Shown here one piece after another: positions 37,464 through 43,557 of a stretch of DNA of 64,000 bases (position 1 is the stretch's first letter; every line of letters starts with the position of its first letter). The position numbers were made by a program, and so were the translations under genes. The stretch is from a virus, in the IMG/VR virus record IMGVR_UViG_3300001041_000002, positions 1 through 64,000 of that record. One strand, written 5' to 3'. Under the pieces are notes generated by a model. The model saw only the letters and a list, made by a program, of their open reading frames with translations. It did no database searches and was not told the origin of the DNA.

Positions 37464-37610
37464 ATGGCACGAAAATTCCACAGTGTTGTCAGACTGTCAA
37501 ACAGGACGGCAATAGAATTCGATGTATTCGCTTCGAGTAAAATTGAAGCAAACAAAAGTATTGTAAGCCATTTCAATAATGGCAAGATTCAATCCATTAA
37601 AACCTATTAA
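37464..37610 (+). CDS. 48-aa hypothetical protein
   Basis: MARKFHSVVRLSNRTAIEFDVFASSKIEA... Confidence 0.55.
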   Translation: MARKFHSVVRLSNRTAIEFDVFASSKIEANKSIVSHFNNGKIQSIKTY

Positions 37611-37612
37611 TC

Positions 37613-37765
37613 ATGACAAGTAAATTAAAATTATCCGTCATAATAGGGTTATTTCTCTCTGTATGTAGTATAATTTCAATTTACCATGAGTCTTATGTGG
37701 CAGCTTTCGTGCTGTTAATTATTCTTGTAGTATCAGTCGACACAATTTACAGAAGAATCAAATGA
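37613..37765 (+). CDS. 50-aa two-TM peptide
   Basis: MTSKLKLSVIIGLFLSVCSII...AAFVLLIILVV. Confidence 0.5.
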   Translation: MTSKLKLSVIIGLFLSVCSIISIYHESYVAAFVLLIILVVSVDTIYRRIK

Positions 37766-37935
37766 CCCTATTAATCATCGTTATCAGTTGGATTGCCTTG
37801 GGTTGTTTCAATGTGTTCAAGCTCTATCAATCAGAGAAATGTGCTGACATAATTGAAACACTCTTTGCAATGCTATTAGCGCCTTTTTACACTATTTTAG
37901 CGTTTATAATTATCTTCATCATTAAAAAGTGGTAG
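37762..37935 (+). CDS. 57-aa two-TM peptide
   Basis: MTLLIIVISWIALGCF...LFAMLLAPFYTILAFIIIFII; ATGA overlap with the previous ORF. Confidence 0.5.
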   Translation: MTLLIIVISWIALGCFNVFKLYQSEKCADIIETLFAMLLAPFYTILAFIIIFIIKKW

Positions 37936-37971
37936 TTTATAAGTATTAACAAAAGCAAATAAATAAACAAA

Positions 37972-38442
37972 ATGAAAGCAAAATTAAGTAATTATTATCG
38001 TAAGCCAGGTGGAACTATGGTTTTCGTGTACATCGTTATTGGTACAGACGTTGAATTGGCAAATTTCAAAGCCGCTAAAGAAAAAGAAGTTACCGGCAGT
38101 GGTAAATCAGCTTATGTTGAAAACGAGGCCCGACAACCACTATTCTTCAGTACTCGTCCATTAAGCACCAATCGTGCAGAGTTAATACCATTGACCATCA
38201 CTACCACTGGTAGGGTTGTTGCCGACGATTTAACCAAAGTGTTGACGCAAGAGGCCAAGCTTGATGATTATATCATGCAAGAAAAAGCCAAAATTATGGC
38301 TAAAGCCGCATTGTCCGGTGGGTTGAACAACTTAACCGATCTTACTTCAACTCGTCCGGTTGCCACAGAGCAAGAGGTTGAAGAGGTATTAAACGGCGCA
38401 ATTGACACTCCGGTTGAGGTTGCTGACAATGTGCCATCATAA
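37972..38442 (+). CDS. Hypothetical protein with acidic C-terminal tail
   Basis: 156-aa ORF with an A-rich leader. Confidence 0.65.
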   Translation: MKAKLSNYYRKPGGTMVFVYIVIGTDVELANFKAAKEKEVTGSGKSAYVENEARQPLFFSTRPLSTNRAELIPLTITTTGRVVADDLTKVLTQEAKLDDYIMQEKAKIMAKAALSGGLNNLTDLTSTRPVATEQEVEEVLNGAIDTPVEVADNVPS

Positions 38443-38450
38443 GAAGTAAA

Positions 38451-38503
38451 ATAATATGGGTGCCGCAAAGGATTAAATGGACAGCAAATCCAGCCCATAT
38501 TAT
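38451..38503 (+). ncRNA. Stem-closed element just upstream of tRNA-Ile
   Basis: ATAATATGGG/CCCATATTAT enclosing GGATT...AATCC. Confidence 0.45.
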
Positions 38504-38509
38504 GATCAT

Positions 38510-38583
38510 TGCCAATTAACTCAGTTGGTCAGAGTTCTAAGCTTATACCTTAGCGGTCACTGGTTCAAGTCCAGTATTGGCAA
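38510..38583 (+). tRNA. tRNA-Ile (anticodon UAU)
   Basis: Cloverleaf: TGCCAAT/ATTGGCA acceptor, ACTC/GAGT D-arm, CTAAG-CTTATAC-CTTAG anticodon arm, ACTGG-TTCAAGT-CCAGT T-arm; CCA not encoded. Confidence 0.9.
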
Positions 38584-38611
38584 CAAATAATAACATTTTA
38601 AAACAATAACT

Positions 38612-38695
38612 ATGAATACAGAATTAATTGCATTTTTAATAGGTGTTGTTATAGGCATATTTATAGCAATATTATGGATATCGGAAAAAAAATAA
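38612..38695 (+). CDS. 27-aa single-TM peptide
   Basis: MNTELIAFLIGVVIGIFIAILWISEKK*. Confidence 0.5.
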   Translation: MNTELIAFLIGVVIGIFIAILWISEKK

Positions 38696-38707
38696 CACTC
38701 CAGCGGC

Positions 38708-38965
38708 ATGAAAGACTATGAAAAGAAAATTAATGATTTTTCATTTAGCTATGCATCATCATTTAAAGAAAATAATGATCAAAGATTAGTTAGAGATGCA
38801 GTAAGGGCTGGGGCCAAGTCAGAAGCAGCTAAAGAATTTCATCAGCAAGGTATGCATACTGAAGAAAATATGTATTTGAATATGCAATACTACATGGAAT
38901 ATTGTGAAAGAAATGGATATACAACTCCAATGGATTGGATTAAAAATCATAAACATTTTAAATGA
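38708..38965 (+). CDS. Hypothetical protein
   Basis: 85-aa ORF. Confidence 0.55.
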   Translation: MKDYEKKINDFSFSYASSFKENNDQRLVRDAVRAGAKSEAAKEFHQQGMHTEENMYLNMQYYMEYCERNGYTTPMDWIKNHKHFK

Positions 38966-39087
38966 AAAAACTCTTCACCATAATAATTATGACATTGATA
39001 TTATCATCATGTGCTAGTTTTAATAAAGCGGCTAAATACCCTAAAGGCACACAAGAAAACACGGATTGGAGGATTAATAAGTTATGA
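38962..39087 (+). CDS. 41-aa putative lipoprotein
   Basis: MKKLFTIIIMTLILSS|C lipobox. Confidence 0.55.
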   Translation: MKKLFTIIIMTLILSSCASFNKAAKYPKGTQENTDWRINKL

Positions 39088-39288
39088 GTAAATTCAATCC
39101 ATATTGCGGAGAAGAATATGAATATCACTCAATATCAGATGATGAATGGTGAAGTTCGTATTTAGAATGGTGTGATGAAAATCTTAATGATGATTAACCA
39201 TGAAATCATATACTTGCGCTATATGTAAATGTACATATACGGGGATAGTTTGTCCTAATTGCGGATCAATAGTAACATCAGAATAATT

Positions 39289-39936
39289 ATGAATAGAAAA
39301 CATAAAGTAATACTGCTTTCAGACAATAGAAATGCAAGATATAAAGACATTGTAACATCTCCTAGATACAAGAATAAAATACAGCTATTTGGGACATTTG
39401 AAAATAGTTATGAAAACGAATGTAAAACTCAACATCTTTACATTATTTCTGATAAAGAAATTAAAGAAGGTAATTGGTTTGTTTCAAGCAAAACAATACA
39501 TAAATGTACATACATTATTGAAGATACTAACGAAATAATGTGTAATATATGTGATGGAACTGGTTTTATTCAACTTGGAATAAAAACGAATAAATGTCAT
39601 AAAATTATAGCCTCGACCAACACCTCACTTAACCTTCCACAACTTTCTCAATCATTTATTACTAAATATATTGAAGAATATAACAAAAGTAATATTATTA
39701 CCGAAGTTATGGTTGAATATGATGAAGAACCAACTATTGATGGTGATTCTGACAAGTACGCCGAGTTACATATCAACTCTAAAGACAATACTATAATCAT
39801 TAAAGATGCCAAGACTAATTGGAGTAAAGACGAAATAATTGTTTTAATTAACAAGTTTGCAGAAAGATTTATGCCACACACAGACAAGGTGTTTGTTAAA
39901 GAAGCAATAAATAATTGGATTAATAGAAATACATAA
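39289..39936 (+). CDS. Conserved Bacteroidota-phage hypothetical protein
   Basis: 'QHLYIISDKEIKEG.W...KIIAST...LPQ.SQSFI.KY...VMVEY'; likely start at MNRK. Confidence 0.6.
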   Translation: MNRKHKVILLSDNRNARYKDIVTSPRYKNKIQLFGTFENSYENECKTQHLYIISDKEIKEGNWFVSSKTIHKCTYIIEDTNEIMCNICDGTGFIQLGIKTNKCHKIIASTNTSLNLPQLSQSFITKYIEEYNKSNIITEVMVEYDEEPTIDGDSDKYAELHINSKDNTIIIKDAKTNWSKDEIIVLINKFAERFMPHTDKVFVKEAINNWINRNT

Positions 39937-39939
39937 CAT

Positions 39940-40048
39940 AACTATCAGGAGCCTAGATTTTGAATTTTTACGGTTAGTTTTAGGTTTTTTAAGGTTTGTT
40001 CATAGATGTCAATAAGTACTTCATGTGTTTTATTGGCTCCTGGTAGTT
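39940..40048 (+). ncRNA. Stem-closed RNA with an 81-nt U-rich loop
   Basis: 14-bp AACTATCAGGAGCC/GGCTCCTGGTAGTT stem. Confidence 0.55.
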
Positions 40049-40060
40049 TTTAAAAACATA

Positions 40061-40232
40061 AGACATAAATATCTGCATAAGACTCAAATGCGAGTTGAAA
40101 GGAGTTGCATAATGATTAGAATTGATCACTATTTGAGGCTGCAAATTTTATGCGCAGAATCCTGCTCTAAGTTGCAAATTAACAGGTTGGCTTAAGTAAC
40201 CATCTAAAATTCTCGCTTAGATATTTATGTTT
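40061..40232 (+). ncRNA. Structured RNA, motif copy 1
   Basis: 14-bp terminal stem; GCAT-AAGACTCAA-ATGC hairpin; GGTT...AGTAACC hairpin. Confidence 0.55.
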
Positions 40233-40242
40233 TTAATAATAC

Positions 40243-40345
40243 AACAACTAATACTACTTAGTCTGTTTTTATTGAAGCTATCAATCTAAACTTAAAGTAC
40301 TGTCTGGTAACTCAGTGATCCTGTATAGTCAGACTATTAGTTGTT
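40243..40345 (+). ncRNA. Stem-closed RNA element
   Basis: AACAACTAA..TAGTCTG / CAGACTA-TTAGTTGTT. Confidence 0.45.
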
Positions 40346-40353
40346 TATAAGAT

Positions 40354-40470
40354 AATAACAATAACACTGTTTACGTATGGTTCGATTCCACGGGGCTCAA
40401 AATAGTGAAATAGTAATAAAGTAACTATAAAAGGGCAGCGCAATAGCTAAGAGGATAGCTTATTGTTATT
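40354..40470 (+). ncRNA. Stem-closed element containing a T-loop (tRNA-like fragment)
   Basis: AATAACAATAA/TTATTGTTATT stem; TGG-TTCGATT-CCA at 40378-40390. Confidence 0.45.
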
Positions 40471-40635
40471 TTTAAAGATAATAACGCTCGAAATCACGAG
40501 TGTTTCTGTAATAAAGATATAAACCGGTCAGCATCTAGTATGGATTTATCCAGAAGTTTCAATCCCGTCAGATATTGTATAAAAGCAGTTTTGGAGTGAT
40601 TAAATGACTTAATTTAACAATTAAAATAAAACATC

Positions 40636-40908
40636 ATGAGAGTAAATCAAGAATTAAGAATTCGTTGGAATCACAGTAGAAGTACTCGTGAAACAGTGTG
40701 TCAGATTTTAGATAACGATGATAATGTCGTTGCAGCCGGTATTGCAAGAGCGTTCGTTAAAGACCCATTTTGTAAGGCCAAAGGCAGAAATGCTTCATTA
40801 ACTAAAGCCTTAAAAGCTGAGAATGCTCATGGAGTAAAAAAGCTTAATAAAGAGGCCAGAACTCAGGTGTGGGCTGTTTGCCGTGAAAACCGTGTAAAAC
40901 TATACTAA
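40636..40908 (+). CDS. Conserved phage hypothetical protein
   Basis: 'T.C......G.A.....D.F.K.KGR..SL..AL' pattern. Confidence 0.65.
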   Translation: MRVNQELRIRWNHSRSTRETVCQILDNDDNVVAAGIARAFVKDPFCKAKGRNASLTKALKAENAHGVKKLNKEARTQVWAVCRENRVKLY

Positions 40909-41167
40909 TGTCACAGAGAATTCAAAACATATTATCAGCTCCAGCCAAGGTGCCAGTAATGATAAAGAAAGGTCGCAAAATGGTTCAGTTGACTAAGACT
41001 ACTAAGAGCGGTCAGGTTAAGAACGTGTGGGAAGATAACCCAGACAGTAAAATCGTTAAACAAGTTAAACATTGGAAAGTCTAATCATGTACACAAAAGA
41101 AGAATTAACTAAAATTATAGATGCCAGGATCAGAGATGATCAGAGTATTTTATACACAGAATAATTA

Positions 41168-41287
41168 AATAAATATAGCAAGTAGGATTAGACTCAAATC
41201 CAATACACATCGCTGCACAACAACACTGAAAAGTGGCGGATCGGTTGAGTAACCACCGTAAACCTATGTGTTCTTGCTATATTTATT
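41168..41287 (+). ncRNA. Structured RNA, motif copy 2
   Basis: 15-bp terminal stem; GGAT-TAGACTCAA-ATCC; ACACAT/ATGTGT; GGTT-GAGT-AACC. Confidence 0.6.
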
Positions 41288-41427
41288 AATATAAAATAAT
41301 TACAATTGCCAGAGAGTTGGAATGGCTGAAGCCCGCTAGTACCGAAACGGGGCTGTAACAATAGAGCTAGCTTGAGAGATTGAGCTAGCTTGTTTTAAAA
41401 ACATTAGCAAATTATAAAATAATAAAA

Positions 41428-41616
41428 ATGGGATCAAACAGTAACAGATCTTTCTCAAAAGAAGAGAAAATTGGATATTATGCCCAAAAAATTTCATCAA
41501 CAAGAGATACATCAAGCTCATCTTTTCAATTGTCTACTGGGGCTAAAATTCGTGGAGAAATGGGTGTTAAAAAAGGCAATGCATTCATAGCTGCAATAAA
41601 AAATGCAAGTAGATAA
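41428..41616 (+). CDS. Small basic protein
   Basis: 62-aa ORF with an A-rich leader. Confidence 0.5.
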   Translation: MGSNSNRSFSKEEKIGYYAQKISSTRDTSSSSFQLSTGAKIRGEMGVKKGNAFIAAIKNASR

Positions 41617-41648
41617 AACAATCATTAACAAATTATAAAACAAAACAA

Positions 41649-42128
41649 ATGAAAAAACTAATTATTGGGTTATTATTTCTCACAATATCTTAAGTAGGAT
41701 ATACAGAGAATAAAGTGGACGATGCAATTACCGCTGTAGATAACACTACAGAGATAGTGAATAAATCCACAAAAGAAGTGAATGCAACAGTTGTTTATTT
41801 CACAGAGAAGCTTGAAGAACTCGCTAAGTCACTAAAAGTGCCAGCAGAACATGTTTATCAAATATTAGTTAAACAACAAATAGTGCAAGCATATACATCA
41901 TTATTTGCTTTCTTTGGATTATTATTATTTTGTTTAATTATAACCTATTTTTTTATAAAAGCCGATGGATTTGAAGATGATTCTTTTATAAATATTAGTG
42001 GATTTATATTAATATTAATATCAGGGATATTGGTATTAACTTGTGGAGCCAATTTTATTTTTAATGGATTTAGCGGTATTATCAACCCAGAATATGGTGC
42101 TATTAAAGAGATAATGTCGTTGTTTTAA
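41649..42128 (+). pseudogene. Membrane protein whose signal peptide contains an in-frame TAA
   Basis: MKKLIIGLLFLTIS*VGYTENKVDD... is in frame with ORF 41715..42128 (two TM segments, 'INPEYGAIKEI'). Confidence 0.5.
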
Positions 42129-42136
42129 TAATAACA

Positions 42137-42327
42137 TAAAATACCCGATGAAGATAAACAATAGGGAAGATCGGTGAATTAACACCCATACGGCGGAGGA
42201 TACGAACAAACGCAACCTATAGTCATGCTAAGATGACGATGTTTATTGTAATACAGCCAAGGAGATAGTTAAAACTTCCCATTATTGTCAATTAAGCTGT
42301 TCCACTTAGAAATGGACGGGTATTTTA
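42137..42327 (+). ncRNA. Multi-stem ~190-nt RNA directly upstream of tRNA-Tyr
   Basis: TAAAATACCCG/CGGGTATTTTA; GGGAAG/CTTCCC; hairpins with complementary CTAAG and CTTAG loops. Confidence 0.55.
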
Positions 42328-42334
42328 AATAAAT

Positions 42335-42415
42335 GGATAGACTGGTAAGTGGGTGAAATCAGCAGACTGTAAATCTGTCGCTTCGGCTATGGGCGTTCAA
42401 ATCGCTCTCTATCCA
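42335..42415 (+). tRNA. tRNA-Tyr (GUA)
   Basis: GGATAGA/TCTATCC acceptor, GCAGA-CTGTAAA-TCTGT anticodon arm, long variable arm, GGGCG-TTCAAAT-CGCTC T-arm. Confidence 0.9.
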
Positions 42416-42438
42416 CAAATCAAATTTTATGTAATATA

Positions 42439-42855
42439 ATGATATTAAAAACGAAAAACCCAGCATATATGTGTTGGAAGATGATGAAAAATAGATGCTC
42501 TAATCCAAATGATCCAAAATTTAAAAACCATGGAGGCAGAGGAATAACTGTATGTAAAGAGTGGGTTGAATCATTTGATAGATTTATCCAAGACATAGGA
42601 GAAAGACCCGAAGGATATACTATAGACAGAATTGACAATAACTTAGGATATTGCAAGGAAAATTGTAAATGGTCATCATATACAGAACAAAACAATAATA
42701 AAAACAACAATATACGATTAACATATAACGGTGAATGTAAAACTGTTTCTGAGTGGGCAAAACACTTAAATATGAATGTACAAACACTATTTTGGAGGAT
42801 AAATAATAATAAAACGGTCTCTGAAATATTATTTAATCATACCCAGAAACAATAA
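42439..42855 (+). CDS. HNH-like homing endonuclease
   Basis: 'GGRGITVCKEW...TIDRIDNNLGY..ENCKW' followed by an HTH-like tail. Confidence 0.8.
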   Translation: MILKTKNPAYMCWKMMKNRCSNPNDPKFKNHGGRGITVCKEWVESFDRFIQDIGERPEGYTIDRIDNNLGYCKENCKWSSYTEQNNNKNNNIRLTYNGECKTVSEWAKHLNMNVQTLFWRINNNKTVSEILFNHTQKQ

Positions 42856-42879
42856 TAATATTAAAATATACAATTTTTG

Positions 42880-43152
42880 TTGACGCTTATCGAAAGACCG
42901 AGTGAGACTCGATGGCAGTAATCGACTCCTCCACTTACGCACACCAATTGAACGCTAACCGGTCGCGTTAGAACCGTTCGATGGCAACTATTGAGTTGTA
43001 AAATAAGGGGGAGAAATAGTATTGATCAGCGGAATGATTAAATAAGAAGAGAAAATTGTAGCTCTCAAAGGGCAAAACTGTTGAACTTTACCGTGAAGTT
43101 GCTATTGCAGCTTAATTAGGTACGTTTCCTAGGGTGTACGAAAACACCCTAA
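42880..43152 (+). ncRNA. ssrA: Circularly permuted (two-piece) tmRNA
   Basis: Acceptor piece GAC-TCGAT-GGCAGTA-ATCGA-CTCCTCCA (ends 42933) precedes the coding piece GGGGGAG...ATTGAT (starts 43007); G3-U70 pair; tag GKTVELYREVAIAA* at 43071-43115. Outer boundaries are approximate. Confidence 0.88.
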
Positions 43153-43170
43153 TCTTTGAATTCATATATT

Positions 43171-43557
43171 ATGAAATATACAGAATCCGAAATCAGTCTG
43201 ACTGTGCAAACAGAGGGCTGTCTTGCTTTACGAGGCAAGTACGAATCACACCCAAAACTTGATGATCAGGGTAATCCAGTGTTCTCAATTGAGCGTAATG
43301 CTAAAAATGAGATCGAAAGAAACCCAGTATTTCAAGTAAAAACAGTTCAATTACCCAAGTATCACAACTGTTCTATCGGAACCAAACTGAACAATCATTT
43401 TGTGCAGTGGGCTTTAAGCAATGAAAGTAAGCCGAAGACTTTGTCTGCCGGTTATTGGAATAAGATGTCTGATCGTCAGAGGCTACATTTTCACGTGACC
43501 AAATATGTGTCAGATTTGTATGGTGATGCAAAATTCAATTACACAATCTTGGAATAA
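43171..43557 (+). CDS. Hypothetical protein
   Basis: Likely start MKYTESEISL. Confidence 0.6.
   Translation: MKYTESEISLTVQTEGCLALRGKYESHPKLDDQGNPVFSIERNAKNEIERNPVFQVKTVQLPKYHNCSIGTKLNNHFVQWALSNESKPKTLSAGYWNKMSDRQRLHFHVTKYVSDLYGDAKFNYTILE

Follow-up and report, generated by a model that had tools for sequence, protein, structure and literature searches.

A probable full-length freshwater-1-type RNA gene and an orphan RNA cassette in the RNA island of a groundwater crAss-like phage

We identified in a groundwater crAss-like phage an RNA gene that is very probably a divergent, full-length representative of the freshwater-1 type (RF02979) of phage RNAs, an assignment that rests on comparative sequence analysis. 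It is one of two elements, here called copy 1 and copy 2, which the initial annotation of this DNA had described as two covarying copies of one unrecognised RNA motif. Both elements are indeed present where they had been placed, with long, AU-rich terminal stems (12 bp, 40063-74/40219-30, in copy 1 and 15 bp, 41168-82/41273-87, in copy 2), and both are structured non-coding RNAs rather than ribozymes of a known class, Rfam giving no hammerhead, twister, pistol or HDV match. They are, however, not two covarying copies of a single unrecognised motif: copy 1 belongs to a family whose 3' third corresponds to RF02979, and copy 2 is an orphan. The complete reading, in which copy 1 is a family member acting by the mechanism proposed below and copy 2 is a separate cassette, has in our estimate a probability of about 0.65.

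The window, i.e. the whole 64,000-nt stretch that was analysed, comes from an IMG/VR virus record of 101,419 bp that has direct terminal repeats. PHROGs recognised the portal, terminase and head protein, and the major head protein shares ~55% identity with its counterparts in crAss-like phages. Copy 1 is one of a series of stem-closed RNA modules arranged head to tail from a tRNA-Ile to a tRNA-Tyr gene (Table 1). Several inverted repeats (9-15 bp, 50-260 nt apart) were found in this island, consistent with stem-closed units; modules 42137-42327 and 40243-40345 are each closed by an 11-bp stem, and the adjoining module 40344-40469 contains a T-arm-like GGUUCGAUUCC. The nearest tRNA genes are 1.5 kb and 2.1 kb from copy 1 and are separated from it by other stem-closed modules and by small ORFs. 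A scan for promoters and terminators did no better than on shuffled sequences. Searches of the small ORFs of the island against Pfam and PHROGs detected no family of known function: a 225-aa ORF (39259-39936) matched only phrog_15656, whose function is unknown, and a 90-aa ORF (40636-40908, + strand) had no Pfam or PHROG family. The latter is probably a real gene, because most differences from a related contig fall at third codon positions.

Rfam entry RF02979 presumably stems from the 224-motif survey that Weinberg and colleagues published in 2017. The main text of Weinberg et al. 2017 (PMC5737381) does not contain the name freshwater-1, nor was it found in any paper of the literature searched. 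When IMG/VR was scanned for the RF02979 core, conservation in all genuine loci extended beyond the Rfam motif, by ~130 bases on its upstream side and ~40 on its downstream side. A typical member (L030) scored 84.7 bits with RF02979, above the threshold, and divergent members scored 61, 60, 43.6 and 37.8 bits, followed by the window with 29.8 bits. The passing score of the typical member and the gradation below it indicate, on comparative grounds, that the 62-nt Rfam model covers only the 3' third of an RNA of ~190 nt (175-200 nt), starting with the 3' strand of P2, continuing over P6-P7 and ending with the A-rich linker that follows P7. Family loci were located between or beside tRNA genes, often at a distance of 5-15 nt. 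No match to the window region or to a typical family member was detected by blastn among GenBank phages, and the family model found nothing in five whole crAss-like relatives. In bacterial and archaeal genomes, nhmmer found no family member among the pattern loci listed (at least 120), and the positive control worked.

A clean alignment of 18 distinct sequences (A2) gave with RNAalifold a multi-helix fold in which 36 of 48 pairs showed compensatory changes. A metagenome scan added further members, including divergent ones, and the enlarged alignment (A3) contained 34 sequences; fold statistics were computed on the 33 that are distinct. Ten helices make up the family fold: the whole molecule is closed by P1, P3 and P4-P5 lie inside P2, P6/P6a and P7 lie inside Px, and P8 is optional. 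Overall, 95.7% of the cells were paired and 44 of 52 pairs had changed on both sides. The covariation score was 0.62; shuffles gave 0.19, and sliding the partners never gave more than 0.084. P2 was paired in 100% of cases, with compensatory changes in four of its five pairs. Px emerged from A3 as the closing helix of a three-way junction with P6 and P7, and alone stood out in a permissive column-pair screen for pseudoknots that was otherwise too noisy. The most conserved feature was the internal loop CUCU/AA of P6, whose columns are invariant in the 33 sequences; the junction UGAAAG was likewise invariant in A2.

Several family loci had additional features. L053 (1992-2140, - strand) contains a natural mini-variant of 149 nt (40.6 bits) from which the whole P4-P5 arm is gone. 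In L117, a metagenome contig that also has tRNA genes, a GC-rich family member has a Pistol ribozyme match (1842-1902, + strand; 45.5 bits, above the gathering score of 34.5) ~1.1 kb upstream of it. L158 had a weak permuted-tmRNA match (2104-2528, + strand; 37.5 bits, below the gathering score of 47) that spans the family RNA at 2147-2333.

Copy 1 was detected by R1, a covariance model of 18 distinct, unrelated IMG/VR phage RNAs from which copy 1 itself had been left out, with 57.1 bits and an E-value of 9e-15 over model positions 1-202. This was the only match in the window, and the whole 101-kb genome contains no further copy. The only Rfam signal of copy 1, to RF02979, was sub-threshold (29.8 bits, the gathering score being 72), but the alignment extends over all 62 model positions with every conserved unpaired letter in place. 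The CCUG/CAGG helix with its CUCU/AA internal loop, the inner hairpin, the abutting second hairpin and the A-rich tail are all present, and the scores of other family members grade down to that of copy 1, which argues that copy 1 belongs to the family. An Rfam match was what the initial annotation had said would remove the novelty of the motif. P1, P2, P3, P4, Px, P6, P6a and P7 are kept by compensatory changes together with the invariant UGAAAG, the model alignment of P4/P5 being of low confidence. The P5 loop of copy 1, AAUUGAUCA, is identical in L097. P8 is missing, as it is from L040, L074, L141 and L051. Copy 1 differs from the catalogued freshwater-1 motif in its lack of P8, its 12-bp P1, its crAss-like phage host and the absence of directly flanking tRNA genes. 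An alternative register of the terminal stem was also noted (40050-40061 with 40225-40236, UUAAAAACAUAA / UUAUGUUUUUAA); the two 12-bp registers arise because ACAUAA is repeated, and are mutually exclusive.

Table 1. Positions of the RNA features of the island, with the helices assigned to copy 1
Feature	Position	Strand	Remarks
tRNA-Ile	38510	+	Same strand as both elements
Copy 1	40060..40234	+	175 nt; P1-P7 and Px, without P8; R1 match
P1	40063..40073 with 40220-40230	+	ACAUAAAUAUC; model alignment and pair check
P2	40074..40078 with 40150-40154	+	UGCAU with AUGCG; model alignment, pair check
P3 hairpin	40081..40096	+	GACUC-AAAUGC-GAGUU (GACUC 40081-85, GAGUU 40092-96); holds the AGACUCAA box of the initial annotation
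Junction UGAAAG	40096..40101	+	Invariant in A2, present in copy 1
P5 apical loop	40123..40128	+	Palindrome UGAUCA
Freshwater-1-like part of copy 1	40151..40209	+	RF02979, 29.8 bits, E 2.8e-4
Px	40156..40160 with 40209-40213	+	AGAAU with AUUCU; closes the P6/P7 three-way junction
P6	40161..40186	+	CCUG/CAGG with invariant internal loop CUCU/AA
P6a hairpin	40169-40180	+	Palindromic tip UUGCAA, 40172-40177
P7 hairpin and A-rich linker	40187..40208	+	UUGG, loop CUUAAGUAA, CCAU; linker CUAAAA
Direct repeat AATAATTA, left copy	41160..41167	+	Flanks copy 2
Copy 2	41168..41287	+	120 nt, stem-closed RNA cassette; MFE -32.4 kcal/mol, z -4.57
Direct repeat AATAATTA, right copy	41295..41302	+
tRNA-Tyr	42335	+	Same strand as both elements
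Permuted (two-piece) tmRNA-like gene	42873-43115	+	RF04321, 52.4 bits, above the gathering score of 47
Stem-closed units	Copy 1, 40243-40345, 40354-40470, copy 2, 42137-42327		Inverted-repeat search

The family fold of copy 1 differs from that first drawn for it. The initial annotation had described hairpins with a AGACUCAA loop, and the strings GCAU-AAGACUCAA-AUGC in copy 1 and GGAU-UAGACUCAA-AUCC in copy 2 are present; in copy 1, however, these bases belong to P2 and P3. The inner helices GCGAG/CUCGC and ACACAU/AUGUGU can likewise be written down, but in copy 1 the former overlaps the GCAU/AUGC hairpin by two bases (the GC of AUGC/GCGAG), and the helices proposed for this element clash with P2, P3 and Px, which covariation supports. 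A further relative, L310 (96 bits with a second family model, R2), has a P3 (AAGACUCAAAUGCGAGUUGAAAGG) identical letter for letter to that of copy 1, and its 5' flank is unable to form the GCAU/AUGC hairpin. The complementarity between loops holds for copy 2 (ACUCAA/UUGAGU) and for five of six positions in copy 1, where in the family fold ACUC pairs instead with GAGU of P3. The strings GGUU..AACC and the A-rich linkers exist in both elements, and the word AGUAACCA common to them (40195-40202) falls within P7. The exchange of GCAT/ATGC for GGAT/ATCC, which had been called compensatory, rests on two sequences and was not supported. Nearest-neighbour energies of copy 1 favoured neither fold, which counts against our reading (-42.1 kcal/mol without constraint, -34.8 when constrained to the earlier helices and -31.0 when constrained to the family helices), and the z-score of the whole-stretch fold against shuffles was -2.3. 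We gave the comparative evidence more weight than energy, and the family fold is the one we predict for copy 1.

A recurrent property of the family is the self-complementarity of its hairpin tips. In P6a, the four apical bases were self-complementary in all 18 distinct hairpins (18/18) and came in five versions (UGCA, GGCC, UCGA, GCGC and AGCU), the commonest tip being GUGCAC; the P6a apex of copy 1 is UGCA, itself self-complementary. The P5 tips are palindromic in most members (UAAUUA, UAGCUA, UGGCCA, UGAUCA and UCGCGA), but seven members have the non-palindromic loop UCGCAA, which counts against self-pairing. The palindromes of P5 and P6a differ within each RNA, e.g., UGAUCA and UUGCAA in copy 1. 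In OLE and GOLLD, switching from one palindrome to another was read as a sign of intermolecular kissing loops, which cryo-EM confirmed (Kretsch et al., PMC12286853 / bioRxiv 10.1101/2024.12.08.627333). By the same reasoning, and because adjacent loop bases are unable to pair within one molecule, pairing between molecules offers an explanation of the P6a tips; that copies of the family RNA pair loop to loop with each other is a possibility to which we give somewhat less than, or at best, even odds.

The mechanism we propose would begin with transcription of the RNA along with the island, followed by its excision as a stable small RNA. As family genes lie beside tRNA genes, tRNA-processing enzymes would be a likely route of release. 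Among the sequencing runs listed as containing this DNA, none is an RNA run. The invariant CUCU/AA internal loop of P6 may form the functional core, and the self-complementary tips of P6a and P5 would allow at least two copies to pair loop to loop, the outcome being an RNA-only dimer or a larger assembly. We tentatively suggest, as an idea with a good deal less than an even chance, that the full-length freshwater-1 RNA, including the minimal version in the crAss-like phage, is a small self-assembling RNA in which orthogonal P5 and P6a palindromes make symmetric kissing contacts, so that copies assemble into dimers, rings or cages with no protein involved; in that case the RNA island would consist of a series of exchangeable cassettes, with copy 2 as a truncated derivative.

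In copy 2, a perfect terminal stem encloses the GGAU/AUCC hairpin and the helix ACACAU/AUGUGU, which in turn contains two abutting hairpins, CACU-GAAA-AGUG and GCGG..GGUU-GAGU-AACC..CCGU. This topology, a helix closing two abutting hairpins and then an A-rich linker, is that of Px-P6-P7, with a GAAA loop in the hairpin at the place equivalent to P6a. The fold of copy 2 was much more stable than those of shuffled sequences. Four colinear words at similar offsets are common to the two elements (ATAAATAT, AGACTCAAAT, AGTAACCA and ATATTTAT); they correspond to a stem word, AUAAAUAU, with its complement, to the 5' half and loop of P3 (AGACUCAAAU), and to the loop and 3' strand of P7 (the word within P7 noted above). 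A shared 10-mer with one colinear 8-mer occurred in 49 of 20000 dinucleotide shuffles. Based on these words and the topology, copy 2 might be a rearranged derivative of a copy-1-like RNA which lost the family core and would retain no more than the terminal-stem word and one half each of P3 (5') and P7 (3'). We regard this descent as plausible, a little short of an even chance; that the case consists of four short words in AT-rich sequence counts against it.

The same colinear words and shared topology, along with the loop complementarity, are what speaks for the explanation originally offered, that copies 1 and 2 represent one new RNA family (terminal stem, AGACUCAA-loop hairpin, inner helix and GGUU..AACC hairpin with a loop-loop tertiary contact) acting as a ribozyme, aptamer or decoy. 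Similarity searches gave a different picture. The single-sequence model of copy 2 (R3) did not report copy 1, the family models scored copy 2 at 1.5 bits and E 6 (R1) and 2.0 bits (R2), below the score of its own reverse strand, and nhmmer detected no similarity between the two elements, whose best local alignment score was reached by 5% of shuffles. RF02979 and all of Rfam had no match to copy 2 at E-values up to 10. Copy 2 lacks every invariant nucleotide of the family (CCUGCUCU, AACAGG and UGAAAG) as well as the CCUG/CAGG-CUCU/AA columns. The MAFFT alignment of the two copies had their 5' halves out of register and could not serve for the joint covariance model that the initial annotation had suggested, and a third instance was found neither in IMG/VR pattern scans nor in 620 kb of loci nor in the rest of the genome: the pattern AGACTCAAAT..GGTT..AGTAACC gave 10 IMG/VR loci, all of them chance matches in coding-like sequence, no further AGACUCAA-loop hairpin was present in the genome, in crAss-like relatives or in the 620 kb, the pattern of copy 2 had no homologue in IMG/VR or in the rest of the genome, and R3 gave one weak match only (L097, 17.8 bits, E 0.33) in loci totalling 512 kb that were family-bearing or crAss-like. 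Together with the mutually overlapping copy 1 helices that clash with covariation-supported ones, and with a relative that keeps the box and is unable to form the hairpin, these results make a common new family very improbable. A different account would treat copy 2 as a miniature inverted-repeat element at the DNA level, its stem being terminal inverted repeats, AATAATTA a target-site duplication and the RNA fold incidental. Its perfect 15-bp inverted ends fit such an element, as does a related contig that joins 41159 directly to 41295, so that copy 2 is absent and the junction lies exactly at the 8-nt repeat AATAATTA; relatives likewise differ in whether they have other modules of the island. 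Nevertheless, copy 2 is single in the genome and was not found elsewhere, 7 nt separate the right inverted repeat from the direct repeat, and a second related contig skips copy 2 from a different left junction (41080 joined to 41296). In addition, AATAATTA occurs 36 times in the 64-kb window compared to 16.6 times expected from shuffles, and because it is so common in this genome, a target-site duplication and a microhomology deletion look alike at the junction and explain the joint equally well. The interior of copy 2 has well-formed hairpins, one with a GNRA loop, and we consider the mobile-element account distinctly unlikely.

The tips themselves could reflect a DNA-level site. If they were recognition sites for a protein, on DNA or RNA, or processing signals, the RNA would be a protein-bound monomer, an interpretation to which the invariant CUCU/AA loop beside P6a, resembling a specific binding site, and the small conserved ORFs of no known family inside the island lend some weight. 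What argues against it is that the tip varies freely among five unrelated palindromes, so that self-complementarity alone is kept, and that P5 and P6a of each RNA carry different palindromes. We therefore regard protein recognition as unlikely, and retain the reading of copy 1 as a freshwater-1-type RNA whose tips may pair between molecules, with copy 2 as a separate cassette.

The related contigs, which come from other metagenomes, also bear on the modular nature of the island. One of them omits 40344-40469 (joint 40343 to 40470), from which it follows that this module, too, is a separate cassette, and similarity to relatives starts right after copy 1, at 40235 or 40243.

Other known RNAs were compared. 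The closest in sequence is RF02979 itself, with which copy 1 shares the CCUG-CUCU..AA-CAGG helix, P6a, an abutting P7 and an A-rich tail, and to which relatives bridge the scores. ROOL (RF03087) and GOLLD (RF02032) are likewise phage or prophage RNAs near tRNA islands; they and OLE form RNA-only homo-oligomers, and palindrome-switching loops mark symmetric intermolecular kissing contacts (Kretsch et al., PMC12286853), but there is no sequence or model similarity, the Rfam models of ROOL and GOLLD had no match in the window, and at 500-800 nt versus 175 nt, the freshwater-1 RNA is 3 to 5 times smaller. The likeness to ROOL, GOLLD and OLE may be one of mode of action and is not one of membership. 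Species 1 and 2 RNAs of phage T4 (rnaC and rnaD) are also small stable RNAs among phage tRNA genes, freed by tRNA processing (NC_000866 annotation); the family model found nothing in the T4 locus, rnaC and rnaD included. Kissing-loop dimerisation hairpins are known from RNA viruses, and the dimerization initiation site (DIS) of HIV-1 has the palindrome GUGCAC or GCGCGC. Both this hairpin and the coronavirus s2m (PMC12291111) resemble the freshwater-1 RNA in having a palindrome of 4-6 nt at a hairpin tip, but their context is unrelated, and dimerisation of the freshwater-1 RNA is inferred. Self-cleaving ribozymes (hammerhead, twister, twister-sister, pistol, hatchet and HDV-like) had no Rfam match at E-values up to 10 in 39950-41450 or 37500-43500; for a hammerhead, GAAA and CUGUGAUGG also occur in the wrong order and context. 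A tRNA-like cloverleaf was dismissed as its topology does not fit.

With these results, the supposedly unrecognised motif is placed in a catalogued family, and the catalogue entry RF02979 would amount to one third of the real molecule. In divergence and in small size, copy 1 stands near the extreme of the family, and together with the L053 variant, which has no P4/P5, it defines a minimal core of P1-P3, UGAAAG, Px, the P6 loop, the palindromic P6a tip and P7. The window contributes three things: a crAss-like phage member that is very divergent and has no P8, evidence of cassette behaviour, and the orphan copy 2. The presence or absence of single modules among related phages shows that RNA islands of this kind evolve by gain and loss of cassettes. 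If the proposed mechanism is true, the freshwater-1 RNA would correspond to ROOL and GOLLD at a size of 175-200 nt, and copy 2, in which two boxes of copy 1 are preserved, could cap the assembly or interfere with it. If palindromic loops drive self-pairing, these RNAs would provide a small, tractable system for natural RNA-only assemblies of phages.
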